From Alphaproteobacteria bacterium (lineage in GTDB: Bacteria; Pseudomonadota; Alphaproteobacteria; JAQWUY01), in assembly GCA_965276005.1 (NCBI GenBank), contig OZ254962.1, positions 1,887,809-1,951,808 on the forward strand: DNA of 64,000 nucleotides, read 5' to 3'. The notes beneath the pieces were generated by a model. It had not been told where the DNA came from and ran no database searches. It saw only the letters and a program-made list of their open reading frames with translations. Numbering within the stretch: the first letter of the stretch is position 1; every line of letters begins with the position of its first letter. Positions 36,657 through 56,496 of this stretch are shown here, one piece after another. Position numbers and translations under genes: made by a program.

Positions 36657-36731
36657 GCCGTCGTAGCTCAGTGGTAGAGCGCGTCATTGGTAATGACGAG
36701 GTCGGAAGTTCAATTCTTCTCGACGGCACCA
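36657..36731 (+). tRNA. tRNA-Thr (anticodon GGU), CCA encoded
   Basis: Acceptor stem GCCGTCG/CGACGGC, U8-A9, D-stem GCTC/GAGC, anticodon stem CGTCA/TGACG with loop TTGGTAA (anticodon GGT), T-arm GGAAG-TTCAATT-CTTCT, discriminator A, CCA. 75 nt. Confidence 0.9.
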
Positions 36732-36941: not shown

Positions 36942-38111
36942 ATGTTAAAGCGATATATTACAGATTTTGTACATAAAAGTGTATCCCAAATGCCGGCGGT
37001 GGCGTTGTTGGGGGCTCGGCAAGTGGGGAAGACTACGCTTGCTAAGACCTTTATGGCGGATGGGAATGCCATTTATATGGACTTGGAAAATCCTCGGGAC
37101 TTGTTACGGCTCGACGACCCTTTGGCGTTTTTTGCGGAACATGCGGACAAGTTGATTATTCTGGACGAAATCCAACGCATGCCCAATATGTTTACGACCC
37201 TGCGAGGGATGATTGATACCAACCGTGCTAACGGTCGTAGGGTTGGACAGTTCTTATTATTAGGCTCTGCATCTATGGATTTAATGCGTCAATCGTCCGA
37301 AAGTCTTGCCGGTCGTGTGCGGTATGTACATATGGGCGGATTAAATGTACTGGAAATCGGGAAAAGCCGTCAAGATATGAATCGCCTGCTACTGCGGGGG
37401 GGATTTCCCGAAAGTTACTTAGCGGTCGATGACAGTTCGGCTATGGATTGGGTGCATGATTTAATAAGTACTTATCTGGAACGGGACATTCCGCAAATGG
37501 GCTTTAATGTACCTGCAGACAGGTTGCGGAGATTGTGGGCTATGCTTGCCCATTTGCAAGGGGAAACGGTTAATGTCAGCACCTTAGCCACCAATTTGGA
37601 AGTACAACGGGCAACTGTCAATCACTATTTGGATATTTTAACTGATTTATTATTAGTTCGTAAATTACAACCGTATCACGCCAATGTAAAAAAACGCCTA
37701 GTAAAATCCCCCCGATACTATATTCGGGACACGGGCATACAAAATTGTTTGTTGGGCATAGAAAATCACGATGCGTTATTATCCAACCCCATACTAGGCA
37801 AATCATGGGAAGCGTTCATCATAGAAAACATCCACTCTGTCCTGCCGAAACGGGCAGAAACATACTTTTACCGCACGCAAGCAGGGGCAGAAATAGATCT
37901 CATCATAAAATTCCCCACAGGCGACATCTGGGCAATCGAAATAAAATACGGACAATCCCCAAAAATCAGCAAACATTTTCATACGACCTGTCAAGACATA
38001 GGGGCAACCCAAAAATACATCATATACGGCGGGAACGATACATTCCCCATCAGAAATGGCGTTGTTATGACAGGGGTAAAGGCGTTTATGGAAAGACTTG
38101 GGGAATACTAA
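36942..38111 (+). CDS. AAA ATPase (AAA_14-like) with C-terminal DUF4143 / PD-(D/E)xK-like domain
   Basis: Walker A 'GARQVGKTT', Walker B 'LIILDEIQ'. C-terminal 'GAEIDLIIKFPTGDIWAIEIKYG' is a PD-(D/E)xK nuclease-like motif. Typical DUF4143-family ATPase. Confidence 0.8.
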   Translation: MLKRYITDFVHKSVSQMPAVALLGARQVGKTTLAKTFMADGNAIYMDLENPRDLLRLDDPLAFFAEHADKLIILDEIQRMPNMFTTLRGMIDTNRANGRRVGQFLLLGSASMDLMRQSSESLAGRVRYVHMGGLNVLEIGKSRQDMNRLLLRGGFPESYLAVDDSSAMDWVHDLISTYLERDIPQMGFNVPADRLRRLWAMLAHLQGETVNVSTLATNLEVQRATVNHYLDILTDLLLVRKLQPYHANVKKRLVKSPRYYIRDTGIQNCLLGIENHDALLSNPILGKSWEAFIIENIHSVLPKRAETYFYRTQAGAEIDLIIKFPTGDIWAIEIKYGQSPKISKHFHTTCQDIGATQKYIIYGGNDTFPIRNGVVMTGVKAFMERLGEY

Positions 38112-38150: not shown

Positions 38151-38865
38151 GGGCTGTACCAGATAACTAGCCTAAATATTTTTTAGTCCACTGTTTTTTT
38201 TGTGATTTAAAACCACTGTGATTAAATCGCCACTCACATTCTTTCAAGTATAGCACGAAATTCTGCTTAGAAATACTATTATATGTACGCATATGGCGTT
38301 TAGCTTGGTTCCAAAAATTTTCAATGCCATTTATGTGATTATCACCATCTGCAAACTCTGTGCTATGGTTAATCCGCATATGGTGAAAATCTGTAACATC
38401 CAAAGCATTATATCCTTTCCAACCATCACTATATACGATACTATCAGGAACAACTTTGCTTTCAATAATTGGTATTAAAGTATCACCACTTGCATCAGGT
38501 ATCATTTGCGTATAAACCTTTTCGCCCCTTTTAAGTAAGCCAAATACAGGTGTTTTCGCCTTCGCACCCCGCCCCCTTTTTCCTTTACGGCTACCACCGA
38601 AATAACTCTCGTCAACTTCTATTTTACCACCAAAATAATTACTGCCTTGCTGTTCCATTTCATAGAAAATTATCTCTCTTAAACGATGAAAATAATATGC
38701 TGAGGTCTTATGATTAACACCTATCAATTCATTGGCACAACGAGCTGTCGTTCCTGCAACAAAGTGTTCAATTAATTGCTCTTGCTTATACCAACTTATC
38801 CGACTTTTTTTAAATAATCTATCCATAATAACAACCTATCATAAGTTAGTTATCTGGTACAGCCC
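38151..38865. mobile_element. IS1595-family insertion sequence (compact, ~715 bp) with 19-bp perfect terminal inverted repeats
   Basis: Left IR GGGCTGTACCAGATAACTA (38151-38169). Right IR is its reverse complement TAGTTATCTGGTACAGCCC (38847-38865). Encloses the single transposase ORF. Confidence 0.75.
38167..38826 (-). CDS. IS1595-family transposase (N-terminal zinc-ribbon-like region plus DDE domain)
   Basis: 219 aa. '…YSDGWKGYNALD…HMRINHSTEF…GIENFWNQAKRHM…' is the DDE_Tnp_IS1595 pattern. Confidence 0.8.
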   Translation of the reverse strand: MDRLFKKSRISWYKQEQLIEHFVAGTTARCANELIGVNHKTSAYYFHRLREIIFYEMEQQGSNYFGGKIEVDESYFGGSRKGKRGRGAKAKTPVFGLLKRGEKVYTQMIPDASGDTLIPIIESKVVPDSIVYSDGWKGYNALDVTDFHHMRINHSTEFADGDNHINGIENFWNQAKRHMRTYNSISKQNFVLYLKECEWRFNHSGFKSQKKQWTKKYLG

Positions 38866-39238: not shown

Positions 39239-39616
39239 CTTAGAACCAATGCGTGTGGGGACAATTGGCTGTTTTTTGGCGATCGCACCGAAGCCAACGA
39301 TTTTTTATACAGTGAAACCTTAACCACATGGGAAAAACAAGGCAAACTGCGGCTGTCCTTGGCATGGTCCCGTGACCCTAACACCCCAAAAACCTATGTA
39401 CAAGACCTGATGTTACAACAGGGCGAAGACATTTTTAAACAACTTGAGAAGGGGGCATACTTTTACATTTGCGGTGATGCATCGAAAATGGCAAAAGATG
39501 TGGACGCCGCCTTATTAGAAATCGTATCGACACACGGAGCTATGGCAATAGAAAAAGCCACCGCATACATTAACGACCTAAAAAAGAATAAACGCTATGT
39601 GCGCGATGTGTATTAA
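39239..39616 (+). pseudogene. cysJ: 3' remnant of sulfite reductase (NADPH) flavoprotein gene cysJ (FAD/NADPH-binding C-terminus only)
   Basis: 'WLFFGDRTEANDFLY…YFYICGDASKMAKDVDAALLEIV…RYVRDVY*' reproduces the CysJ / cytochrome-P450-reductase C-terminal end (...RYQRDVY). The N-terminal ~430 aa are absent. Confidence 0.7.
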
Positions 39617-39753: not shown

Positions 39754-40839
39754 TTATCTGCTAGATTTTCTACGATTGCAATCTTTGCATAACATTTGAC
39801 AGTTTTGTTCCACCGTTTTACCGCCCTGCGACCATGGGGTGATGTGATCGCCTTCCATTTGTTTAATGTCAAAGTGTTCGTTGCAGATTATACATATACC
39901 GTTTTGTTTTTGGTATACTCTTTGTTTTATTTGGGGAATAAAAGCCCTTATATTTAAATGTCGTTCGTCATGAGTTAGGATATAAGGATAGATACCCTTT
40001 TGATTTTGTACATCTTCGTCTTCAATAAGTTTTGATATTTCTTTTTCTAATTCTGTCGTATCATAAGTCTTATCTTTAAATTCATTATACAGATCCCCCC
40101 AATTTACACCTTTCATTATTTTAACTCGTTTTTCTATAAAAGTGCCTTTTACCCAAGTAATGACATTTTGAAAGTATTGCCATAAAGCAAGTGCATTAAG
40201 ATCATGCTGATGATTCGACATATATGGTTCAATATTTTTTTCTGAAATCCATTTTATTACTGTTTCTAAATAGTCTTGTCTAATAGCAGAGCCGTTCAAA
40301 TAATCATGTCCAATTTGATAGGCAGGACACCCATTTTTACTGAAATACCTTTTAGCATCGGTGACCCAAGAACCCGAATAAACAGCATTTCTTAATTCTT
40401 GTTCTGTTAATTTTTCGCCTGCTATGTTAATAGTTTGAAACCATTTTAATTTTTCACTATCTTTGCCGCTACAAATATAAACCATTAATTTATAATCTAA
40501 AATTTGCTGTTGTTCGTCCGATTGCAAATTATGAAAACTTCTTAAATTATAAGAAAAATCACCATTGATATATTGGCATAAGGATAGGGTTCTTTGTTGC
40601 CCATCTATAACTTCAAAAGTTCCATTCTCTTTAAGAGCCCAATACATGACATTTAATGGAAAATTGTTTGTTACAGTATTTATAACTGCGTCCCGTTGTG
40701 CGTCTTTATAGATAAACTCCCGTTGATAGGGAGGGCGAATATCTAACTTTCCACCATACCCTAAAATGCCATTCTCTTGGTTGTCTTCATATCCATCTGT
40801 TAGTTCACGAACGGTTATTTCTTTAAGTTCTATTTTCAT
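39754..40839 (-). CDS. DUF262 (ParB-like NTPase/nuclease, DGQQR motif) plus C-terminal HNH endonuclease domain protein
   Basis: 'IRPPYQREFIY', 'FEVIDGQQRTLSL' (DUF262 hallmarks). C-terminal 'CIICNEHFDIKQMEGDHITPWSQGGKTVEQNCQMLCKDCNRRK' is an HNH motif. Start overlaps the methyltransferase stop (ATGA). Confidence 0.75.
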   Translation of the reverse strand: MKIELKEITVRELTDGYEDNQENGILGYGGKLDIRPPYQREFIYKDAQRDAVINTVTNNFPLNVMYWALKENGTFEVIDGQQRTLSLCQYINGDFSYNLRSFHNLQSDEQQQILDYKLMVYICSGKDSEKLKWFQTINIAGEKLTEQELRNAVYSGSWVTDAKRYFSKNGCPAYQIGHDYLNGSAIRQDYLETVIKWISEKNIEPYMSNHQHDLNALALWQYFQNVITWVKGTFIEKRVKIMKGVNWGDLYNEFKDKTYDTTELEKEISKLIEDEDVQNQKGIYPYILTHDERHLNIRAFIPQIKQRVYQKQNGICIICNEHFDIKQMEGDHITPWSQGGKTVEQNCQMLCKDCNRRKSSR

Positions 40840-41930
40840 AATTTTTTATTCCTTATAATTATGCGTGCGTATATACTAGAATACAATGCACCAGTTTCAC
40901 AGTCCTTAAATGCAGGTAGTTTTTTATCTTTTGTGGGATTATAAAGTCTATATAAAGTCCCTTTTGCATTCATTGTATATATACCTGTTGATTTCCCGGT
41001 TTTTTTGTCTAAAATCTCCATTTTTCTGTTAGTATCAAATTCAATAGAGCCAACAATCCCCAATGCTATAATTTCAAATTGTTCGGGATTATATTTATCC
41101 ATAAAAGTAATAGGGACACCCATCTCACCAGAATAATCCATTGGAATATCTTTGGTTTTGTCGACATTGATTGCATTAAAATTTTCATATTTCGGGTACG
41201 ATTCAGGTTCATACATTTTATAAAGAATTAAATCTTCGTAACGAGACTTATATTCCAAGTTTGTAAACCAACGAACACCTTTAACTCGGATAAATTTATT
41301 ATTATTTTCATCTACTCTAAACCCTGACGCTTTTAATGGATAGTCCTTGGGAACTCCAAATTCTCTGTCGCCACTTTTTATACTTGCCCCTAACCATATT
41401 TTATTATCACGAATCAACGAAAAAATTTCCTTATAAGTGAGTGCATTTAAATTTCCGATAATTAAAAACTGTTTATCATATTCGATTAGTTGTGCAACAT
41501 ACTCTCGAAACAGTGAAAATGGGGGGTTGGTAACAATAATATCTGCTTGTTTTAAAATATCGATACATTCATTACTACGAAAATCACCATCGCCATCAAG
41601 ATAATGAACGCCTATCTCTTCTATATCGGGAACATTGTTGCCATTTTTATCACCATTGTATTCAAGATAAATGGCTTTTTCGCTATCATTTTGACTAAAA
41701 AAATCCCTATTTTGATTTTTGTAACAAATGGTTATGAGTTTTTTTAAGCCAAGATGTTCAAAGTTATAAGAAAAATAGTGAAAAAAATTACTTACTCGTG
41801 GGTCATCACAATTACAAAGAACAGTTTTACCTTTAAAATGTTCCTTGTAATGTTTCAATTCTTTTTCAATATCCGAAAGCTGCGTATAGAACTCGTCCTT
41901 TTTTTGCTTTTTTGCTTGCTGTAAACCCAC
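40836..41930 (-). CDS. DNA methyltransferase, N6-adenine/N4-cytosine class (NPPF motif IV), EcoRI-methylase-family-like N-terminus
   Basis: 'DIIVTNPPF' catalytic motif. N-terminal 'KKQKKDEFYTQLSDIEKELKHY' resembles the EcoRI-type adenine methyltransferase family. Annotated start is GTG; an upstream ATG with a GAGGA SD lies beyond the poly-G tract (see findings). Confidence 0.7.
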   Translation of the reverse strand: MGLQQAKKQKKDEFYTQLSDIEKELKHYKEHFKGKTVLCNCDDPRVSNFFHYFSYNFEHLGLKKLITICYKNQNRDFFSQNDSEKAIYLEYNGDKNGNNVPDIEEIGVHYLDGDGDFRSNECIDILKQADIIVTNPPFSLFREYVAQLIEYDKQFLIIGNLNALTYKEIFSLIRDNKIWLGASIKSGDREFGVPKDYPLKASGFRVDENNNKFIRVKGVRWFTNLEYKSRYEDLILYKMYEPESYPKYENFNAINVDKTKDIPMDYSGEMGVPITFMDKYNPEQFEIIALGIVGSIEFDTNRKMEILDKKTGKSTGIYTMNAKGTLYRLYNPTKDKKLPAFKDCETGALYSSIYARIIIRNKKL

Positions 41931-42181: not shown

Positions 42182-42775
42182 TCATGTAACAACATACTCG
42201 GATATGGCAATAATCACAGACACTAGCCCAGCGGTCAAGAATATTGTGCGATAACTTGAAATATGGATGTCTCGTTTGGTATCTTTGCGTAGCTGTTCTA
42301 TATCCTTACGCAAATCAACAATTTCCCTACGCAGATCGGCAATTTCTCTGTGAATATTTGCAATTTCCTCACGCACATCTGCAATTTCTTTTTCGGTTTC
42401 CACCCTTAATTTTGCAATTTCCTCATGGACATTTGTAATTTCTCTATGAATATTTGCAATTTCTTGCTTAGTCTCCACTCGTAAGCTTTCAATCTCTTTA
42501 TGGATATTTGCAATTTCTTTATGCACATCCGCAACCTCCCGTTTGCTATCGATACGCATTTGTTCTATATCCTTGTGGATAATAGCTATTTCTTTTTGAA
42601 TTTCTGCTACATCTTGTTTGGTAGCAACATTGGTGTTGGCAACCACCGCATAAGCAAGTGCCTTAGCATTTTGTTCTGACATGCCCATTCGTATCAGTTC
42701 TTGGGCGGTGCTGTATGTATCTGCAGTAGCAATTTGTAGTTCCATAGATCTTCTCCTTAGATGCGATTTTACCAC
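42182..42775 (-). CDS. Coiled-coil protein with tandem 11-aa (hendecad) repeats and C-terminal TM anchor
   Basis: Repeats KEIANIHKEIE / REITNVHEEIA / EEIANIHREIA. C-terminal hydrophobic 'IFLTAGLVSVIIAI'. The DNA carries the matching 33-bp tandem repeats (about 42290-42600). Confidence 0.5.
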   Translation of the reverse strand: MVKSHLRRRSMELQIATADTYSTAQELIRMGMSEQNAKALAYAVVANTNVATKQDVAEIQKEIAIIHKDIEQMRIDSKREVADVHKEIANIHKEIESLRVETKQEIANIHREITNVHEEIAKLRVETEKEIADVREEIANIHREIADLRREIVDLRKDIEQLRKDTKRDIHISSYRTIFLTAGLVSVIIAISEYVVT

Positions 42776-43429: not shown

Positions 43430-44347
43430 ATGGATACGCATAACACATTATACATTATTGGACCGAGCGCATCGGGAAAATCAGATTTCGCCGTACGATT
43501 GGCACAGCACTATAATGGTGTCATCATAAACGCCGACAGCATGCAAGTATACCAAGGTGTACGCATAGTAACCGCTATTCCCGATACACACACCCAACAG
43601 GGCATACCGCATATGCTGTACGGGTGCGTATCACCCCTAAAACCGTTTGATGTGACCCAGTGGCGACAGCGGGCTGTGGCGTGTATACAACAGGTACTAC
43701 AAATGGGCAAAACCCCCATTTTATGCGGGGGAACGGGATTATATGCGGCGGCAATCATGCACGGCTTATCGCCGATTCCCGATATAAACCCAACCATTCG
43801 CCAAACCGTCCGTAACATGGATGCACAAATGCTGTATACGGCTTTGCAAACCGAAGATCCCATCATGGCAAAACGATTACACAGGGGCGATACACACCGT
43901 TTGGCACGGGCATTGGAAATCGTCCGCAGCACAGGTACCAGCCTTGCCCATTATCAAAACATACCGCCGATTCTCATTCCTGCGGATATTCGAATCAAAA
44001 TGGTGGCACTTTTGCCAAAACGACAGACTCTATACGACCGCATCAACCACAGATTCGCCCATATGTTCAAAAACGGGGCGGTCGACGAAGTACAACAGCT
44101 GTTGCAAATGGGCGTCGATGACACCGCCCAAATCTTGCGGGCAATCGGCATTGCCGAAATTGTCGCATATATACAAGGAAAATACGATAAACACACCGCT
44201 ATCACGCATGGCAAAACCGCTACCCGCCGCTATGCCAAACGACAAATAACCTATATCCGCCACCAATTAAACCCACACATTATTATTGATGATACACAGC
44301 TTTTTGACATGCGGGATATACTTTTATATAAAAACAATGTACACTAA
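43430..44347 (+). CDS. miaA: tRNA dimethylallyltransferase
   Basis: 'LYIIGPSASGKSDFAVRLAQ…INADSMQVYQG…IPH…LCGGTGLY' are canonical MiaA motifs. 305 aa. Confidence 0.9.
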   Translation: MDTHNTLYIIGPSASGKSDFAVRLAQHYNGVIINADSMQVYQGVRIVTAIPDTHTQQGIPHMLYGCVSPLKPFDVTQWRQRAVACIQQVLQMGKTPILCGGTGLYAAAIMHGLSPIPDINPTIRQTVRNMDAQMLYTALQTEDPIMAKRLHRGDTHRLARALEIVRSTGTSLAHYQNIPPILIPADIRIKMVALLPKRQTLYDRINHRFAHMFKNGAVDEVQQLLQMGVDDTAQILRAIGIAEIVAYIQGKYDKHTAITHGKTATRRYAKRQITYIRHQLNPHIIIDDTQLFDMRDILLYKNNVH

Positions 44348-44415
44348 AGTGTATATTCTTTTTTTATTTTCTGTTATATTGGTTTCTATTAGGACAACAC
44401 ATATTAGGACAACAC

Positions 44416-45177
44416 ATGAAATCACAGCAACAACATGATATTTTGCCAGTAGAGAAAGTCATCGACGATATTACCCTGCACAAGGCAAAAAAAGGCGACA
44501 TCGGGGCGTGCTTTGATGTGGGCGATGCGTATTACCATTACTACAGGGACACACCAAAATCGTCTGTGGATGTGCTGCACCACGCAGAAAAATGGTTTAC
44601 GAAAGGGCTAAATTTGGGATCAGCCGCAGGATTTTATCCGCTCGGACTGGTGTACATGGAATATGCGGACGCTTTGTCCGAAACAGAAAAAAACATCAAG
44701 CAAAAACTGTCCTACCTGCTGCAGGCAGAATACTTATTTTTAAAAGCATTCCACGAAACTGAGGACACGGACGCCTGTTACCAGTTAGGCAAATTATACT
44801 TCGATCATGCGGATGTATTAGAATTCAACATGGAAACCACCCCACACTGCAAAATCGCCAACGACGATATGTCATTTATCAAAAAACAACGACGAAAAAA
44901 GTTGGAATCCGCAGAAAAGTACTTTTTATTGGCGATCACCCGGGGGACTCGTAAACCAGAACTCGTCCATTACATGCTGGGCATATTGTATTGGCAATAC
45001 GCAATAGATGCCAACAAAAAAGAAAAACCAAAATGTGTGGAAAATGCCCAATTCCATTTCAATTACACACTGCACCTGCAACCCCGAATCGCCATATGGA
45101 CGATATGCAGACTGTTTTTAAGTATCGGAGAATATAAGGTGGCGTTAAAGTACTTTTTGCGTATTTTTATTGGTTAA
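44416..45177 (+). CDS. Sel1-like/TPR-like repeat protein
   Basis: 'AEKWFTKGLNLGSAAGFYPLGLVYMEY', 'AEYLFLKAFHETEDTDACYQLGKLYFDH', 'AEKYFLLAITRGTRKPELVHYMLGILYWQ' fit the Sel1 repeat spacing. Low GC. Confidence 0.4.
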   Translation: MKSQQQHDILPVEKVIDDITLHKAKKGDIGACFDVGDAYYHYYRDTPKSSVDVLHHAEKWFTKGLNLGSAAGFYPLGLVYMEYADALSETEKNIKQKLSYLLQAEYLFLKAFHETEDTDACYQLGKLYFDHADVLEFNMETTPHCKIANDDMSFIKKQRRKKLESAEKYFLLAITRGTRKPELVHYMLGILYWQYAIDANKKEKPKCVENAQFHFNYTLHLQPRIAIWTICRLFLSIGEYKVALKYFLRIFIG

Positions 45178-45315
45178 GTGGTTTTTTTTATGGTGAAAGT
45201 TAAACACACTGTAAACAATATTTGACCAAAAATGCTTTTTTAGATAAAAAAATGACAAAATTTCGTTAAAACATGCTACTATTTAAAAAATGTATTGTTA
45301 AAAAAGAGTAATATT

Positions 45316-46482
45316 ATGTTAAAAAAGGTAAGTGTTTCTAACTATCATAGCATAGGACAACAAGCAGTTGAAATGTGTTTTGATTCTGAACTACCCATTT
45401 ATATTGTGATGGGGGGGAATGCATCGGGCAAGACAACTTTATTAAAAGCTATTTCCTTTATCTTTTGGTTTATGAATTCTGATGAACAACATGAGAAAGA
45501 CGAAATGGTGTTTTTCCCTCATGTACTGCATAAAACATCACCCTCTGTATTTGCAATAGAATATACAGATGGCAAAGCCAAATATCAATATCAACTTGAA
45601 TTCAAAAATGGTACTTTAGTCAGAGAAGAATTTTCAAAACATGTGACTAGGGGATATTCAAGAGTGTATTCTGTGTTTCGTACAAAAAACAATGTAGAAT
45701 ATAAACTTTCAAACGCATTAAAATCAGTCCTTAATGAAAATGATAAAGTGCGTTATGGCAAGTTGAAAAATTGTTCGTTTTACAGATTTTTGCAAAATAC
45801 GGGGTATTTTGATTTATTGAATATCGATGTCAATTTTGTAAAAAATATTGTGAGTAATTCTAGTAATATTGGGCGTCAAATCCAACAAGATGGAGTAAAC
45901 ATGTTTTTTAGCTTAGCCAATATATTACAAGAAAATAAAAAATTGCAGGACTTTTTAATTAACCATTTGCAAATGTTCGATTTCAATATATCAAAATTTG
46001 TTTTTGATGACAAGCAAGCACTAAGAAATGATAAAGGAGAACTAGAAACTGTAACGACTACAAGCTTGGTTCATAAAACTGAAAGTTCTAAGGCAACACT
46101 ACCATTGCTCTTTGAATCAGAGGGAACTTATGCAGTGATACCGTTTTTGATCAATTTGTATGAGTTGATAAAAAATGGCGGCGTTATGATATGGGATGAG
46201 CTAGAAAACAGTACACATCCATTGGTCGCCAAAAAATTTATATCTGTATTAAAACAATATGTACAACATCATAACATACAAATAATTTTTGCCAGCCATA
46301 TGAATGCGTTACTGAATGAATTTGAGAAGAAAAGTATATTTTTTGTGGAAAAAACCGATCTGTTGGAAACAGATGTTTATACATTAAATGATGTCGAAGG
46401 TGTGCGTAAAGATGAAAATTTTGCTGATAAGTACATTGGGGGGGTATATGGTGGCACTCCAGATATTATGGGAGTTGCCTAA
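45316..46482 (+). CDS. ABC-type AAA_21/AAA_15-like ATPase (AbiLi-like component of an abortive-infection/OLD-like pair)
   Basis: Walker A 'GGNASGKTTLLKAI', Walker B 'IWDELENSTHP', H-loop 'FASHMN'. Likely start is the second Met (MLKKVSVSNYHSIG), the typical N-terminus of these ATPases. Low GC (~30%). Confidence 0.7.
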   Translation: MLKKVSVSNYHSIGQQAVEMCFDSELPIYIVMGGNASGKTTLLKAISFIFWFMNSDEQHEKDEMVFFPHVLHKTSPSVFAIEYTDGKAKYQYQLEFKNGTLVREEFSKHVTRGYSRVYSVFRTKNNVEYKLSNALKSVLNENDKVRYGKLKNCSFYRFLQNTGYFDLLNIDVNFVKNIVSNSSNIGRQIQQDGVNMFFSLANILQENKKLQDFLINHLQMFDFNISKFVFDDKQALRNDKGELETVTTTSLVHKTESSKATLPLLFESEGTYAVIPFLINLYELIKNGGVMIWDELENSTHPLVAKKFISVLKQYVQHHNIQIIFASHMNALLNEFEKKSIFFVEKTDLLETDVYTLNDVEGVRKDENFADKYIGGVYGGTPDIMGVA

Positions 46483-47051
46483 TGGGTAAAAAAAGAAATA
46501 GAAAGACAGGGTATTTGTTTGTACTTGAAGGTGATGATGAGGAAAAATTATTGTGTGTATTTAAAAAGCTATATACAATACATAAAAAACACATTAGTTT
46601 TAAAGAAGTATTTGCCAAGGGAGGCGATCCAGATTCCATTATTACCTCTGCTTGTCACAAAAAGGATACAGTAGACTTTACATATGTATTATTAGACAAT
46701 GACATACCTATGAAATCAGATAATAAGACACTCTGGCAAGCTTGGACTATAGGAGGGACGCCTATTAATGGGAAAACACCATCACAACTTGTTGTTCTAA
46801 ATAAGAACGATAGAAATCCAATCTTAATAGTTTCTGAACCATTAGCTATGGAAAATACATTATTGGATTTGTTTTCTATTGAGGTAACTGCTGATAACAC
46901 AAAGGATTTAAAAACGCAGGTCAGAAACCATCTTGGGACAAATTGGGACAAAAAAATTACTCGAAAAATGTTAGAATCATCAACTAACTCTGTCATTCAA
47001 GAATTGGTGAAAATATTTCGAGAAATAGAAAACATTTCGCTCAGAAATTAA
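46482..47051 (+). CDS. RloB/DUF4276-like Toprim-fold protein (AbiLii-like partner)
   Basis: N-terminal '[15 protein letters not shown]' (RloB-type 'l.v.EGe.tE' motif) and 'LLDNDIP' (DxD). Start overlaps the ATPase stop (TAATG). Confidence 0.55.
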
Positions 47052-47071
47052 AATCTAGCAAAGGAACGCAT

Positions 47072-48946
47072 ATGGTAAAAACATTTGATGTTATTGTGAT
47101 TGGCGGTGGGCATGCGGGATGTGATGCGGTGGCGGCGGCTGCTCGTATGGGGGCGAACGCATTGTTGCTTACCAATGGCAGACAGCACATTGGGGTTATG
47201 TCTTGTAACCCGGCTATTGGCGGGCTGGGCAAAGGGCATTTGGTCAAAGAAATTGACGCCTTAGACGGGGTGATGGGCGTTGTTACGGATCGGGCGGGCA
47301 TTCAATACCGTATGCTTAACGCATCTAAAGGTCCCGCCGTTTGGGGACCCCGCACACAGGCAGATCGTGCGTTGTACAAATCCGCTATGCAGGAGGTGAT
47401 CTTTCACTACCCGAATGTAACCGTCGCCGATGGCTTGGCGGCAGAAATTTTATTCGACACCAATACAGTCATCGGCGTTCGCACAGAGGACAACGATACA
47501 TACACTTGCGGGGCGGTGGTGGTAACCACAGGGACTTTTTTAAACGGCAAAATCTTTATGGGCGATGAGTCTTGGGATGCGGGGCGTATAGGGGAAGCAC
47601 CGGCAAAAAATTTGTCTACTTGCTTGCAAAATATAGGCTTTCAAATGGGGCGGTTAAAAACCGGTACGCCCGCCCGCTTGATCGAGGAATCCATAAACAC
47701 GGATGGTTTCGATGTACAGTATCCAGACGATACGCCGGTGCCGTTTTCTTATTTGAATACCGTTATCGATATTCCGCAAGTTCGCTGTTTTATTGCCTAT
47801 ACCAACGCCGAATCGCATCGAATCATTCGGGATAATTTACATCTGTCGTCGATGTATTCGGGACACATTAAAGGTGTAGGTCCCCGCTACTGCCCCTCTA
47901 TCGAAGACAAAATTGTTCGCTTTGCCGATAAGCACCGTCATCAAATATTTCTCGAGCCCGAAGGGCTAAACGACAACACCATATATCCGAACGGTATGTC
48001 TATGTCCATGCCCCGCAGAGTACAAGATGCGTTTTACAAGTCGATCAAAGGGCTAGAAAATGTGCAGATTAAACAGTACGCATACGCCATTGAGTACGAC
48101 TACATCGACCCCCGAGAATTAAAGCCTACCTTAGAGGCAAAAAAGGTCTCAGGGCTGTTTATGGCGGGGCAAATAAACGGCACCACAGGATACGAAGAAG
48201 CCGCCGCACAAGGTTTAATCGCCGGTATCAACGCCAGCCTTGTTGCCGGCGACAGCCAAAAACAATTTACCATTTCTCGCACAGATGGATATATCGGGGT
48301 GATGATCGACGATTTAATCACCCGGGGCACCAATGAACCCTACCGCATGTTTACCAGCCGAGCCGAATACCGCTTGCGACTGCGACAAGACAATGCGGAT
48401 CAACGCTTAACCAACACCGGCATCGAAATCGGTGTGGTCGGAAAAACCCGCAAAAAGCACTGGACAAACAAGAAAAACGCCCTGCATACAGTAAAAACAA
48501 AAATGCAATCGTTAAAAGCCAGCCCGAATCACTTACAGCGATTCGGTATTGCCATCAACAAAGACGGCAAAGTACGCACCGCCTTAGACATATTGGGGTT
48601 GCCGAATATTACCTTTGATACCCTCTGTCAAGTGTGGCCCGAACTGAACGCCCTGTCCGCCCCCATGCGACAAGCAATGGAAATCGATGCATTATACAGC
48701 GGCTATATGGTACGGATGGAACAGGATATTGCCGCTTTTAAAAAAGACGAAAATATCCGTTTGCCCATCGATTTAGACTACAAAAATATCGGCGGGTTAT
48801 CGTCCGAATCCATCGACAAACTCAGCCAAGCCCAACCGGCAACACTGGGAGCGGCAAGTCGTATTCCCGGCATTACACCGGCAGCGGTCATAACCGTGTT
48901 GCACTATGTACGCAAAACCTATACCAACAAAGCCCCTGCGGGATAA
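47072..48946 (+). CDS. mnmG: tRNA uridine 5-carboxymethylaminomethyl modification enzyme MnmG (GidA)
   Basis: '[15 protein letters not shown]' FAD motif. 624 aa, typical MnmG throughout. Confidence 0.95.
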
Positions 48947-51546: not shown

Positions 51547-52350
51547 ATGAAAATCACCCCCTTTGCCTATGTTTTTCATGCCGTATGGTTTGTTGTGAAA
51601 CATATCATCGACATGACAAAGTTGGTTATATGTATCCCGGTTGCCTTGTCTGTTTTTATACTATTTATAGAATATGTTATCAGTGGTGAAATGTTCGGCG
51701 ATTCCACCAGTGGTAATATGGTACCTGATATTATAATTACCTCTGTATTTTTATTTTTTTGTGTAAAGTATGCCTTAACACAGATACAAACAGACGCACA
51801 ACCATTTTCCTTTAAAACCCTAGTACAAGTAAAGGACACATCAAGCAAACAACACCCTATCATAAAGGTATTCTTAAAGGGACTTTTATTTTCTATCTTA
51901 TTGCTTCCCATGTTATTGTTGGGATTTAGTATATATAGTACCCCCCATATGACAGCAGGGGTTATACTTAGTATTTTACTGTTCATGATGGGTATTATAT
52001 ACATTAGATTAAGATTTATTTTGATTGCCACTGCTATGGAAGATATAGCAACAATAGAACATATTTGGTGTATGACCAAAGGTTTTAATGTGGCGTATTT
52101 TAAATTTATGATTGCCTTATTGATATTGACCACACTGTGGCTGATTTTAAATGCCATATTTTTTGTACTCTTTACTTTGATAGAATCCACATGGGCAAAT
52201 ACCATTTGGGGTGAATCTGCCTTGTTTATATTTATCGGCACCATATATTGGTTGTTTTACGCTATGTACAATCACGCATTTTTATTATTTTACTTGGACT
52301 TAAAAAAGTTATATCATGACACCAACACCTATAGACTATGGGAAATATGA
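51547..52350 (+). CDS. Polytopic membrane protein, paralog 1 of a tandem triplicate family (function unknown)
   Basis: N-terminus 'MKITPFAYVFHAVWFVVKHI' is shared with paralogs 2 and 3 (M[RQ][IV]TPFKY). About 6 TM segments. -10 TATAAT and an AAGGA RBS upstream. Confidence 0.5.
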   Translation: MKITPFAYVFHAVWFVVKHIIDMTKLVICIPVALSVFILFIEYVISGEMFGDSTSGNMVPDIIITSVFLFFCVKYALTQIQTDAQPFSFKTLVQVKDTSSKQHPIIKVFLKGLLFSILLLPMLLLGFSIYSTPHMTAGVILSILLFMMGIIYIRLRFILIATAMEDIATIEHIWCMTKGFNVAYFKFMIALLILTTLWLILNAIFFVLFTLIESTWANTIWGESALFIFIGTIYWLFYAMYNHAFLLFYLDLKKLYHDTNTYRLWEI

Positions 52351-52388
52351 TTGTAAAACCAAAACAGATGTATACAGGAGAATTTTAT

Positions 52389-53210
52389 ATGCGAATAACA
52401 CCTTTTAAATATGCCCTAGATGCCAATATTTTTGTCTTAAAAAACTTTGACAATGTGGTGCGATTGGTTTTGGTTTACACGCTTATTAGCACGCTGTTAT
52501 ATGTGACAGACGCTACAAACATAGACCAAAAATTACATCTAGGGCTAGACGATATAATCAATGTGCAATTTGTGTTGGCATTACTTGCCCAACAGTTTTT
52601 GTTCATTATGTATATTGTGCCCTACATCCAATACGCATATGCCAAGCACCAAAACCCAAACACAGATGCCCGCCCTAGCGTACAAATGTCGGTGTCGTGG
52701 AATACCTATAAAAGTGCATATTTTATCGCCACCTTGAAAATTATTTTCTGGACGATAATAGCCTTTGTTGTTTTATTTATGCCTCTGCTTATATTCGTTT
52801 TTTTTGACCCCATGACCAGTGTTTTTAGAATCATTATTGCCGTTATATGTGTAGGGACAATTTTAATATTTTCGCTGATTACAGCCCTGCGGTTACAAAT
52901 GGCAGCCATCGCCGCCGCATTGGGGCAAGATGCCCGTATCACATACGCATGGGAAATCACCAAGGAACACAAAGGCAAATTGTTTTTGTTGCTGGTATCC
53001 AATGTTATATTTGTCCTATTGTGGTATGGGGCGTCTGAACTTGTAAGCCTACCTTTTGCGACAGCGGACTCCCTGTGGGCAAATATTTTTGGTACCTTTA
53101 TAGAATTTCTTGTCGTTTGCATAGGCACTATAACAGCAACGCACAGCATGATGCTATTTTTTACCGCCCGACAAGACAGCATCGAAAATGCTAAAAAATA
53201 CACGGTGTAG
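52389..53210 (+). CDS. Polytopic membrane protein, paralog 2
   Basis: 'MRITPFKYALDANIFVLKNFDNVVRL…VPYIQYAYAKHQNP…' with an AGGAG RBS. The track ORF 52338.. is an over-extension. Confidence 0.5.
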   Translation: MRITPFKYALDANIFVLKNFDNVVRLVLVYTLISTLLYVTDATNIDQKLHLGLDDIINVQFVLALLAQQFLFIMYIVPYIQYAYAKHQNPNTDARPSVQMSVSWNTYKSAYFIATLKIIFWTIIAFVVLFMPLLIFVFFDPMTSVFRIIIAVICVGTILIFSLITALRLQMAAIAAALGQDARITYAWEITKEHKGKLFLLLVSNVIFVLLWYGASELVSLPFATADSLWANIFGTFIEFLVVCIGTITATHSMMLFFTARQDSIENAKKYTV

Positions 53211-53288
53211 GGTGTTAAAAAATATGTGCACCACCATTATAAATCTGTTATAATACCGCCGTAAACATACAAGTCTGGAGGATTTTAT

Positions 53289-54077
53289 ATGCAGGTAACA
53301 CCTTTTAAATATGTCATCGATGCCCATGTCTTTGCTGTCAAGAACTTTGAAAACATTGTGCGGTTATGCTTGTTGGCGGGTGTTATTGGCACGGTGTCTA
53401 CCGTATTGGATTTTGGCACCCCACCACTCCTAGACGCACAAGGCAATTTCACCGCTGTACTCACTTGGGATTTAGCGGTTACGGTGGTTGTGAATTTTAT
53501 TCTAAGCGTTATGTTTACCGTGCCATATATCCAATACGCCCACACAAAAAGCCAACGGCCCACCGCACATATTCGCCCGCATATTCAGATGTCGCTGGGG
53601 TGGAATAAATATAAAACCGCTTACCTTATTGCCAGCTTAAAAGTGTTTGCCATGTGGTTTGCCTTGATTGTGTTGGTGATTGTTGCAGATGCTGTATTAA
53701 GTGTGCCACCGCTTGTCAGCATCACCGTATTTTTAATTGCCATAGCGTTTATATTACGGCTGTATGTGATAACAACCGCCGCCGCATTGGGCGATAGCTC
53801 TGACATCAAAGCCATCTGGCACATCACCCAAACGCACACCGGAAAATTTATGATTTTAATCGTCTGTAATGTTTTTTTTATGATAACATGGGGGGTGGTC
53901 ATATCCATACTCAGCACCCCATTTTTAACCGTCGATACATGGTGGGCAGAAGTTGTGGGTACCTTTATACAAATTATGTTGACATACGCTATGACCCTTG
54001 CCATTGCCCATAGTTTTTTGTTGCTGTATACGGCGATAAAACCGTCCAAACATACCAATACAACATATGACATATAA
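53289..54077 (+). CDS. Polytopic membrane protein, paralog 3
   Basis: 'MQVTPFKYVIDAHVFAVKNFENIVRL…VPYIQYAHTKSQRP…' with a GGAGG RBS. Closest to paralog 2. Confidence 0.5.
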   Translation: MQVTPFKYVIDAHVFAVKNFENIVRLCLLAGVIGTVSTVLDFGTPPLLDAQGNFTAVLTWDLAVTVVVNFILSVMFTVPYIQYAHTKSQRPTAHIRPHIQMSLGWNKYKTAYLIASLKVFAMWFALIVLVIVADAVLSVPPLVSITVFLIAIAFILRLYVITTAAALGDSSDIKAIWHITQTHTGKFMILIVCNVFFMITWGVVISILSTPFLTVDTWWAEVVGTFIQIMLTYAMTLAIAHSFLLLYTAIKPSKHTNTTYDI

Positions 54078-54090
54078 GAACAATACTCTC

Positions 54091-55125
54091 ATGAAAAATA
54101 AATCTGCTAGATATATCATATCCGTTGTTTTGTGTGTTATTGGGGTACACTTTTTCCCCGCTTATGCCGCCGCTGTCAACACACAATCGGGGGCGGTTAT
54201 TGTCATGTTTCACCGCTTTGGTCAAAATACGCACCCCAGTACCAATGTAACCCTGCAGCAGCTCAACACTTTTGTATCGTATATACAGAACAACGGGTTT
54301 AGCGTTCGCCCCTTATCACAAGTGGTAACCGCTGTGCAAAACGGCGATTTTGTACCGGCAAAAACGGTGGTTATCACCATCGACGATGCGTATAAATCGA
54401 TTTATACCCACGCATATCCGCTGTTTAAACGGGCGGGGTTTCCATTTACCGTGTTTTTGTCTAGCCGGGAGATAGGCGGAAAAAATTTCCTGTCTTGGCA
54501 ACAGGTTAGCGAAATGGCAGCCGATGGCGTCGATTTTCAAGCCCACACGCACACCCACGCCCACATGCCCCAACGCACCACAGAACAAAATATAGCAGAC
54601 ATCGACACCAATGTAAAATTGATTGAAAAATACACAGGGATAAAACCCACCTTGTTTGCGTATCCCTATGGAGAGGCTAGTACAGATACTATCGATACGG
54701 TTAAAAACATGGGGTTTCGTGCGGGATTTTCGCAACACTCTGGTGTATTTACCCCAACTGGCGATATGTTTTATATCCCAAGGTTTTCCCTAAACGAAAA
54801 ATACGCCACCACAGAACGGATAAAGTTGGTATTAAACGCCCGCCCCTTTGCCGTTACCGCTTTCAGCCCCAACAACCCACACATCGACAAAAACAACCCG
54901 CCGGTGATACACTTCAGCGTCCCCGAATCGCTAAAATCGTTGCACAATATAAACTGTTTTTATAACGGTGTTGCCAAGATGACCACAAACAAAACCTATC
55001 CCACCGTCACCTTAACTTTCGACCAACCATTCGGCAGCGGCAGGCACCGCATCAACTGCACCGCCCGCCATCCAGACGGTCGGGGATACCGTTGGCTTGG
55101 CATGCAATATGTGGTAACGCCATAA
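54091..55125 (+). CDS. Polysaccharide deacetylase (NodB-homology domain, CE4) with signal peptide
   Basis: 'VVITIDDAYKSIYTHAYPLFKRAGFPFTVFLSSREIG…LSWQQVSEMAADGVDFQAHTHTHAHM' are NodB motifs (TIDD, H-x4-H region). N-terminal MKNKSARYIISVVLCVIGVHFFPAYA is a signal peptide. Confidence 0.75.
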   Translation: MKNKSARYIISVVLCVIGVHFFPAYAAAVNTQSGAVIVMFHRFGQNTHPSTNVTLQQLNTFVSYIQNNGFSVRPLSQVVTAVQNGDFVPAKTVVITIDDAYKSIYTHAYPLFKRAGFPFTVFLSSREIGGKNFLSWQQVSEMAADGVDFQAHTHTHAHMPQRTTEQNIADIDTNVKLIEKYTGIKPTLFAYPYGEASTDTIDTVKNMGFRAGFSQHSGVFTPTGDMFYIPRFSLNEKYATTERIKLVLNARPFAVTAFSPNNPHIDKNNPPVIHFSVPESLKSLHNINCFYNGVAKMTTNKTYPTVTLTFDQPFGSGRHRINCTARHPDGRGYRWLGMQYVVTP

Positions 55126-55134
55126 AAAATAACG

Positions 55135-56496
55135 CTACTTGCCGATACAAAAATCGGCAAATACGATGTCGAGGATGTGTTCTACATCCACTTGCCCGGT
55201 GATTTTACCCAATGCCCGCACAGCTAGTCTGAGCTCTTCGGCTGTCAATTCGATACTTGCGGCGGATTTTGCCCGGGTGATATATTCTACGCACTGCTGC
55301 AGTGCCACCCGGTGGCGATGGCGGGTAATCATCGGCTCTGATGGCACGGCGAATCGCTTTAAAATCAGTCCCTTTAAATGGGATATAAACGCCTCTAAGC
55401 CCTGTTCCGTTAGTGCAGACACACAAAATATATTTTCAGCGGCTGAGGGGGCTTTAAAATCGCTTTTTTCCGATTTGTTGGCAACCACTATCACGGCAGC
55501 GGTGGGATTGTCGATGGTCGACAGCCTGCTTTGCACATACCCCTCATTTATGCGTACATCGCTGCCATCTGCGACCAAAACCACAATATCCGCATTGTTT
55601 GCCGCATCGATTGCCCGCTTGATGCCTTCGCTTTCGACAGCATCTGTGCTGTGTCGCACGCCGGCGGTGTCCAACACCCGCACCGCATAGCCGCCAATGT
55701 CCAAATGCACTTCGATCACATCACGGGTGGTGCCGGCGGTGGGGGACACAATCGCCACATCTCGCTTTGCCAGCGTATTCACCAAAGACGACTTGCCCGC
55801 ATTCGGATCGCCAATAACAGCCACCTGAATACCACTGCGAATGCGTTCGCTAATACCGCCACAGTGTAGGTGCTTGTCCATATCGGCAACAAGCCCATCG
55901 ATTTTCGCAAAAGCGTTTTGTGCCACATCAGCGGGCAAGTCTTCATCGGGAAAATCCATATACGCTTCATAATGGGCAAGTATGGGCAACAAGGTATCCG
56001 CCCACTGGGTGTATTTTTGCCGCATCCCCCCCTGATATTGATATTGGGCCTGCCGCATTTGCATAGCAGTTTCGGCGTTTATAAGATCCATCACCCCTTC
56101 GCTTTGCGTTAAATCCATCTTGCCATTGACAAACGCCCGTTTGCAAAATGCCCCCGGTTCTGCCAAGCTGGCACCGGCACCTTCGAGAGCAGTAAACAGC
56201 TTATCGATAACCGCTCGTGACCCGTGACAATGCCATTCGACCACATCTTCACCGGTGAAAGAATAAGGGGCGGGAAATACCACCGCCATCGCATGGTCTA
56301 TGTCCGTGTTATCGCTGGGATCCACCAACCGCACCCTTCGCAACATACGGGGGGGGAAATCAGACACAGCCGTATCAGCCACCAACCTATCGGCAATAGC
56401 GATAGCCGTTGCCCCCGATAGCCGCACCACCGCAACCCCCGCCCGTCCCACAGCAGACGCCAGAGCGTAAATGGTTGCGGATTGTCCCATCGACAT
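55135..56496 (-). CDS. mnmE: tRNA modification GTPase MnmE (TrmE)
   Basis: 'GDPNAGKSSLVN', 'DTAG', 'NKSE' G-domain motifs. C-terminal 'CIGK' tetrapeptide. 453 aa. Confidence 0.92.
   Translation of the reverse strand: MSMGQSATIYALASAVGRAGVAVVRLSGATAIAIADRLVADTAVSDFPPRMLRRVRLVDPSDNTDIDHAMAVVFPAPYSFTGEDVVEWHCHGSRAVIDKLFTALEGAGASLAEPGAFCKRAFVNGKMDLTQSEGVMDLINAETAMQMRQAQYQYQGGMRQKYTQWADTLLPILAHYEAYMDFPDEDLPADVAQNAFAKIDGLVADMDKHLHCGGISERIRSGIQVAVIGDPNAGKSSLVNTLAKRDVAIVSPTAGTTRDVIEVHLDIGGYAVRVLDTAGVRHSTDAVESEGIKRAIDAANNADIVVLVADGSDVRINEGYVQSRLSTIDNPTAAVIVVANKSEKSDFKAPSAAENIFCVSALTEQGLEAFISHLKGLILKRFAVPSEPMITRHRHRVALQQCVEYITRAKSAASIELTAEELRLAVRALGKITGQVDVEHILDIVFADFCIGK

Follow-up and report, generated by a model that had tools for sequence, protein, structure and literature searches.

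A divergent AbiL/RloAB-type ATPase–Toprim gene pair, very probably acquired horizontally, next to mnmG in an alphaproteobacterial chromosome

We analysed a 64-kb stretch of an alphaproteobacterial chromosome (the whole of which we call the window) and focused on two adjacent plus-strand genes that lie between miaA and mnmG. ORF1 (45316–46482) encodes a 388-aa ATP-binding cassette (ABC) ATPase of the AbiLi type (Rad50/SMC-like, AAA_15/AAA_21), presumed to be a sensor or regulator. ORF2 (46482–47051) encodes a 189-aa divergent OLD-type Toprim protein of the AbiLii/RloB family, presumed to be a metal-dependent nuclease serving as effector or toxin. An earlier interpretation of the same DNA, made without database searches (the sequence-only reading), had described the two genes as translationally coupled, and the stop/start overlap TAATG can be read directly at 46480–46484, with 1 nt shared between the genes. 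The pair is preceded by an AT-rich leader of 138 nt (45178–45315, plus strand; GC 21.7%) and followed by a plus-strand spacer of 20 nt (47052–47071), which carries the mnmG ribosome-binding site AAAGGA; between the end of ORF2 at 47051 and the start of mnmG (Pfam GIDA, 1e-160) at 47072 lies the gap reported earlier. The ORF list gives a 395-aa frame for the ATPase from a TTG at 45295, and the internal ATG at 45316 yields 388 aa. The latter start is supported because the four closest homologues share the N-terminus MLKK. The length of 389 aa first assigned to this protein is thus corrected to 388 aa (389 codons with the stop).

The composition of the pair differs sharply from that of its neighbours. 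GC content is 32.2% in ORF1 and 32.1% in ORF2, with third-position values (GC3) of 27.8 and 26.3, whereas miaA reaches 47.6% (GC3 50.0) and mnmG 49.5% (GC3 54.1), in line with the roughly 30% noted previously. The gene immediately upstream, orf253 (44416–45177), is native-like (GC 42.4%, GC3 49.6), so the foreign patch is limited to about 45178–47071. Frames of 388 and 189 aa in DNA of 32% GC, with homologues at E-values of 1e-122 and 1e-47, are not chance occurrences. The leader contains AAGAG about 8 nt 5′ of the ORF1 ATG and is presumed to hold the promoter and ribosome-binding site of a two-gene operon. No sigma-70-like plus-strand site was found 5′ of this ATG, the sole nearby plus-strand match to the promoter consensus (45319–45348) beginning just within ORF1; the promoter in the leader is therefore putative. 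A weak promoter-like site lies at 47026–47054, within the 3′ end of ORF2.

ORF1 carries all the ATPase motifs on which the sequence-only reading had relied: Walker A GGNASGKTT (residues 33–41), Walker B IWDELENST (292–300) and the H-loop ASH (326–328), together with a signature-like ESEGT (267–271). Walker A, the signature-like ESxGT, the DE of Walker B, Q322 and H328 are invariant in an alignment with 10 homologues. Pfam searches returned AAA_21 (1.2e-20) and AAA_15 (2.1e-12). Among PADLOC models, AbiLi PDLC02335 was the top of 97 matches (E 3.1e-56, 188.8 bits), and all others were far weaker: AriA came second (2.8e-23), ahead of HEC-01A, ATPase-Toprim_I-B, GajA, mad3 and PtuA. The GajA match (4.2e-13) was mainly restricted to the N-terminal P-loop region. 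MADS (MAD3/MAD4) was also considered and rejected, with NF047739 at 28.8 bits, far short of its cutoff (420), and no MADS genes nearby. The predicted ORF1 structure resembles Rad50, SMC, PtuA, retron ATPases and AriA, and profile and motifs fit what has been published on AbiLi, a Rad50-like ABC ATPase (PMC13064643). Close relatives are few: three metagenomic clusters are 48–51% identical, and the next homologues fall to 35%, 32% and lower (best E 1e-122). Homologues in phage records are distant (about 24% identical).

ORF2 contains the RloB-type N-terminal motif of 11 residues (12–22) and the DxD motif (DND, 72–74) that had been recognised by eye. A phmmer search of 1.84 billion representative sequences recovered 38 relatives at E≤1e-3, nearly all of about 190–220 aa, with top E-values of 1e-47, 1e-28 and 3e-11. 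A word-indexed search of 5.8 billion proteins returned the self-match only. Against PDB sequences, phmmer with ORF2 gave nothing meaningful, and profiles of the ORF2 family and of RloB gave chance matches only (PU.1, ribosomal protein S12). We built an ORF2-family alignment (n=39) from the phmmer relatives and from partners encoded beside ATPase homologues. Its invariant positions are E16-G17, E20, G47-G48, D72xD74, W88, N107, P113, S118, P120 and K144, and residue 124 is always acidic (26 E, 13 D). The AbiLii model PDLC02337 was matched by 22 of the 39 sequences and PDLC02338 by 14, the best E-value being 4.8e-15 for the latter and 1.1e-6 for the former; Pfam RloB (PF13707) was matched by seven (best 5.7e-8). 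No other family recurs in this set. The nearest relatives of ORF2 match AbiLii marginally (P0012 at 0.03, P0014 at 1.1e-6), and two relatives carry the annotation “RNase M5”, both from one source.

Profile–profile comparison linked the ORF2 clade to RloB. The RloB set was assembled independently, from plasmid loci reached solely by tblastn with the ATPase and in which PGAP had annotated the downstream gene as RloB; it comprised four proteins labelled “RloB family” or “RloB domain-containing”, from Vibrio, Photobacterium, Mesorhizobium and Enterobacter. With hhalign, a four-member ORF2 clade aligned to this set over 106 columns at a probability of 95.1% (E 3.4e-8), bringing EGxxE, GxP, DxD and SxP..E into register. 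As a control, the columns of the RloB alignment were shuffled 100 times; the probability then never exceeded 1.5% and the score never exceeded 19.7, vs 56.1 observed.

The structural model of ORF2 has a predicted local distance difference test score (pLDDT) of 95.5, and its strand order and motif positions are typical of Toprim domains. The best Foldseek match was 6nk8/6njw, and the Toprim regions of OLD nucleases (BpOLD, GajA, TsOLD) were among the best solved matches. In BpOLD (PMC6755086), the two-metal set consists of E400/E404 (i, i+4), D455xD457, E508, which follows strand 4, and a helical-domain lysine, K562. Judging from sequence, E16/E20, D72xD74, acidic residue 124 and K144 of ORF2 reproduce this catalytic set; from the order of residues and secondary structure, residue 124 would correspond to E508 and K144 to K562. 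Transitive, profile–profile, structural and catalytic-residue evidence thus supports the membership of ORF2 in the RloB/AbiLii Toprim family.

The two genes are kept together elsewhere. All ORF2 relatives with readable neighbourhoods lie directly 3′ of an AAA_15/AAA_21 ATPase of about 390–420 aa. We read 15 homologous loci, eight independent metagenomic ones and seven on plasmids. The order ATPase then small protein holds in all of them, with an overlap in most. The TAATG junction recurs in five of the eight metagenomic pairs; two of the remaining three read TAAAATG. The GC content of the pair is below that of its flanks in 14 of the 15. The closest homologous pair is surrounded by SocA_Panacea, DUF2971, HNH and ThsB_TIR genes, a defence island, and some homologous pairs are carried by small plasmids of 4–5 kb. 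Two distant pairs (those with P0050 and P0055) belong to type I restriction–modification (R-M) operons and are flanked there by hsdS and hsdR, the position that is classic for RloAB of Campylobacter. These embedded pairs occupy 2630–6600 of L009 and 2317–4100 of L021, which are metagenomic or genomic contigs; L009 carries a further 585-aa AAA_15/AAA_21 gene 5′ of its ATPase and RloB-like pair. A homologue of miaA, mnmG or orf253 was found beside the pair in none of the 15 loci, which argues that these neighbours are incidental in the window. We therefore regard it as very unlikely that the position between miaA and mnmG, or a possible read-through into mnmG, has a functional meaning, and we rejected as coincidence a functional link to miaA/mnmG, which would have set anticodon-loop modification against a tRNA-cutting Toprim. 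Also rejected was orf253 as a third component: it is not kept beside homologous pairs, is native-like in composition and lacks a PADLOC match.

We compared the window with one relative, a metagenome-assembled genome annotated as an alphaproteobacterium and the closest genome found. Its MnmG is 83% identical, and mnmG-rsmG-parA-parB is common to both genomes. DNA similarity begins exactly at the mnmG start codon (47074). Upstream of mnmG, the relative has smr, secB, argD, argF, carbonic anhydrase, hsp33, dctP and one unknown gene, all of ordinary GC; both the AbiL pair and miaA are absent there, and none of the genes of its smr-to-dctP block occurs within the 64-kb window. An FNR-like oxidoreductase gene, intact in the relative (L008 110–919), survives in the window as a remnant at 39239–39613 that encodes the C-terminal 125 aa only (84% identical) and adjoins an IS1595-family transposase (38167–38826, minus strand). 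Between the FNR-like gene and mnmG (about 7 kb) the two genomes hold wholly different genes. Because gene content differs and the FNR-like gene is truncated, we conclude that the 7.4 kb 5′ of mnmG were replaced or rearranged. They comprise two low-GC, defence-like patches; between these lie a coiled-coil gene, intermediate in composition, and the native-like mntR, miaA and orf253. The pair does stand physically between miaA and mnmG, as the sequence-only reading had it, yet a simple insertion into formerly contiguous genes is not supported, since the relative has no miaA upstream of mnmG. Conservation of the pair at this site, which the sequence-only reading had named as a possible refutation, was not observed, as far as one comparison can show. 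Foreign composition and absence at mnmG in the relative together support horizontal acquisition.

The other low-GC patch of the rearranged region lies at 39754–41930 (minus strand). It encodes an EcoRI-type N6-adenine methyltransferase (PF13651, 5e-142; PADLOC MTase_II), which overlaps by 4 nt a downstream gene whose 361-aa product combines a GmrSD_N/DUF262 domain with an HNH domain at its C-terminus. Both genes have a GC content of 31–33% and a GC3 of about 25%, a foreign composition like that of the AbiL pair, and they probably form a second, unusual restriction-type module.

Several known systems couple an ABC ATPase to a Toprim nuclease, and AbiL and RloAB are recognised as ABC ATPase plus Toprim/OLD defence systems (PMC13064643, PMC10440598, PMC11464382, PMC10802264). 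The predicted AbiLii superimposes on the C-terminal region of an OLD nuclease, 6NJV (PMC13064643). The pair in the window shares with both systems its adjacent, co-oriented genes, a Toprim fold with catalytic Glu and DxD, and transitive and profile–profile homology. Its resemblance in layout to AbiL (AbiLi/AbiLii) of the Lactococcus lactis plasmid pND861 is close, the ABC ATPase coming first and the small OLD-type Toprim second in co-oriented genes. That system was reportedly described by Deng et al. in 1999. AbiL is defined by adjacent AbiLi and AbiLii genes; here the ATPase profile is matched, whereas the second gene falls below detection by both PADLOC AbiLii models and belongs to a small clade with conserved features of its own. 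The host also differs, an alphaproteobacterial chromosome instead of a lactococcal plasmid. RloA/RloB of the type I R-M loci of Campylobacter jejuni likewise pair an ATPase with an RloB-type Toprim. In the strict sense RloAB belongs to an hsd locus; the pair in the window stands alone by mnmG, with orf253 and mnmG as neighbours and no hsd genes in its flanks, whereas its distant relatives in L009 and L021 do lie in such loci.

Other ATPase-based systems are less similar. OLD nucleases of class 1 (P2 Old, TsOLD) and class 2 (GajA, BpOLD) have the same class of ATPase, the same Toprim and helical-domain fold and a matching two-metal pattern (E, E at i+4, DxD, distal acidic residue, Lys), but in OLD and GajA these domains form a single fused polypeptide and here they are encoded by two genes. 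Gabija (class 2) has the UvrD-like helicase GajB adjacent, whereas no helicase adjoins the pair and the downstream gene is mnmG. In Septu (PtuA/PtuB) and retrons Ec78/Ec83 the partner is an HNH nuclease; here it is a Toprim protein, with no retron reverse transcriptase or non-coding RNA. The sequence-only reading had offered “AbiL / PARIS / class-1 OLD” as the type, which proved too broad: AbiL stands, PARIS falls for want of a DUF4435 match, and class 1 OLD falls because the genes are not fused. We conclude that the pair is a divergent AbiL/RloAB member, and neither PARIS nor class 1 OLD.

Taking these lines together, 45178–47071 is very probably a two-gene module of AbiL/RloAB type that was acquired horizontally. 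The earlier proposal of an RloB/Toprim-like, AbiL-like defence candidate is thereby backed by profile, profile–profile, structural and neighbourhood evidence. How such a module might act can be outlined by analogy with PARIS and with the AAA-antitoxin/TOPRIM_OLD-toxin pairs of NetFlax (PMC10440598). In PARIS, split ABC ATPase and Toprim nuclease genes likewise occur: the AriA hexamer sequesters AriB until phage Ocr triggers its release, and AriB then cleaves tRNA-Lys (PMC11464382). On this template, the ATPase would assemble into an oligomeric scaffold to which the Toprim nuclease is bound and on which it stays silent. A phage-derived cue, sensed via the ATPase, would release or activate the nuclease. 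The freed enzyme would cut nucleic acid, either DNA, as OLD and GajA do, or tRNA or other RNA, as AriB and RNase M5 do, and the infected cell would be arrested and the infection aborted. ORF2 would thus be a metal-dependent nuclease and toxic effector, restrained by an ATPase that senses infection; complex formation, the toxicity of ORF2, its trigger, its substrate and an anti-phage phenotype are all expected on the same analogy. The sequence does not decide between a DNase and an RNase, as OLD/GajA cut DNA and AriB/RNase M5 cut RNA. Together with about 40 representative relatives, ORF2 could constitute a distinct AbiLii/RloB subtype that escapes current profiles. Its marks would be the invariant GG47–48, W88 and N107, along with an insert that separates DxD from strand 4. 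The insert could confer a substrate or mode of activation unlike those of characterised OLD-type nucleases, for example cleavage of tRNA or RNA in the manner of RNase M5/AriB instead of DNA. We give this reading a small chance.

Several observations weigh against this reading as an AbiL-type module. Searched directly, ORF2 matched nothing at E≤1 in Pfam, PADLOC, NCBIfam or PHROGs, including AbiLii and RloB PF13707. The PADLOC check accordingly identified the ATPase as AbiLi and left its partner unseen. Since neither the AbiLii nor the RloB hidden Markov models detect ORF2, automated pipelines would call the ATPase only and not a complete AbiL system. Over the 106 aligned columns the ORF2 clade is only about 24% identical to annotated RloB, and its assignment derives entirely from sequence and models. 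No relatives of the clade were found on viral contigs in IMG/VR, and no direct or inverted repeats, integrase or phage boundaries were found flanking the pair. A scan of 44300–47200 found no terminator-like site 3′ of 44982, and hence none between the pair and mnmG; read-through into this housekeeping gene is therefore possible, and the pair may, from its sequence, be co-transcribed with mnmG. Finally, the mechanism of AbiL proper is itself unsolved (PMC13064643), and the literature, which treats AbiL/RloAB as structurally distinct from PARIS, leaves open whether they work alike.

We weighed four other explanations of the pair. If it were a PARIS system, an ABC ATPase hexamer would sense anti-restriction proteins such as Ocr and release a DUF4435-Toprim nuclease for tRNA-Lys. 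The split architecture is the same, but the AbiLi profile is far ahead of AriA for ORF1 (3.1e-56 vs 2.8e-23), AriA is a propeller hexamer with long coiled-coil inserts, and AriB is a DUF4435 protein of about 35 kDa as opposed to the 189 aa of ORF2. Neither ORF2 nor its 39 aligned relatives match DUF4435/AriB, whereas AbiLii/RloB matches are frequent among them. With the structural distinction drawn in the literature, this makes a PARIS identity very improbable. An inactive remnant, or a fragment of a housekeeping RecF/SbcC-like gene beside an unrelated small ORF, is hardly credible. Weak N-terminal matches of ORF1 to the P-loop regions of RecF, SMC_N and SbcC, and the failure of ORF2 to match a family directly, could be read in this way. 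However, the RecF model (TIGR00611) reaches 22.8 bits where 172 are required and SbcC 12.4 where 478 are, so the housekeeping assignment that the sequence-only reading had named as its own possible refutation did not materialise; neither ORF is truncated by comparison with its homologues, the ATPase and Toprim motifs are all intact, and the strength of those homologues speaks against chance frames.

Alternatively, the pair could be a selfish type II toxin–antitoxin addiction module, a Toprim toxin neutralised by an AAA antitoxin, that serves only its own maintenance or that of the DNA around it and plays no part against phages. NetFlax pairs of an AAA antitoxin and a TOPRIM_OLD toxin have been validated by neutralisation of toxicity (PMC10440598), homologous pairs travel on the 4–5 kb plasmids, and the pair in the window is compositionally foreign. 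Relatives located within defence islands or type I R-M operons point the other way, as does the fact that AbiL proper was defined through phage resistance (PMC13064643). We consider a purely selfish module unlikely; addiction and defence roles are compatible, which makes it a sub-case more than a true rival. An accessory role in which the pair would act solely in concert with a restriction–modification system, for instance as a back-up upon R-M inhibition with the methyltransferase/GmrSD-HNH genes 3.4 kb upstream as partner, would fit the position of P0050 and P0055 between hsdS and hsdR, the similar low-GC composition of the module at 39754–41930, and the precedent of PARIS for sensing anti-restriction proteins. 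But the pair has no hsd genes next to it in the window, the homologous pairs nearest to it in sequence (L001, L002 and L004) lie outside R-M operons, and four genes intervene before the methyltransferase, of which mntR, miaA and orf253 are more native-like and the coiled-coil gene is intermediate. Such an accessory role is, in our judgement, quite unlikely.

An AbiL/RloAB-type defence module thus remains the preferred reading, and with it the ABC ATPase plus Toprim modules gain an example from an alphaproteobacterial chromosome. This class is widespread, and its mechanism is solved for PARIS only. Because a whole clade of Toprim partners escapes the RloB and AbiLii models, automated defence censuses undercount AbiL-type systems, and the ORF2-family alignment could seed an improved profile. 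In other respects this is a routine insertion of defence genes into a rearranged, compositionally patchy region by the mnmG-rsmG-parAB cluster.

Further features of the region were recorded. A tRNA-Thr(GGT) gene (36657–36731) is followed by a DUF4143/AAA_14 ATPase gene (36942–38111), and low-GC DNA starts just past the latter; no integrase was seen there, and a genomic island may have its boundary at this site. The intermediate coiled-coil gene (42182–42775, minus strand) encodes a 197-aa protein made up almost entirely of a repeated coiled-coil motif (KEIANIHREI/EEIAKLRVE) with a hydrophobic C-terminal tail; its CCDC90-like/DUF1640-type matches are weak and below threshold. The gene orf253 had been labelled a Sel1-repeat gene, which we could not verify: no Pfam Sel1 match appeared at E≤1, and PDB sequences gave only weak matches, to a TPR-repeat protein at E 0.013 and a SEL-1 repeat protein at E 6.6. 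It has no family match and no homologue in the locus of the relative. A perfect 15-nt tandem duplication (TATTAGGACAACACA ×2) at 44387–44416 ends at its ATG.

Beyond mnmG, a second stretch of lower GC extends 3′ of parB (51547–56496). It holds three ORFs of 267, 290 and 262 aa that lack a Pfam match (GC 33% for orf267 and 39% for orf290), then a polysaccharide deacetylase gene and then mnmE, which lies on the opposite strand about 6 kb from mnmG. Elsewhere in the window, a minus-strand gene at 20954–26008 encodes a 1684-aa protein with an N-terminal two-partner secretion (TPS) domain and FG-GAP repeats, which from its domains is a predicted large secreted exoprotein.

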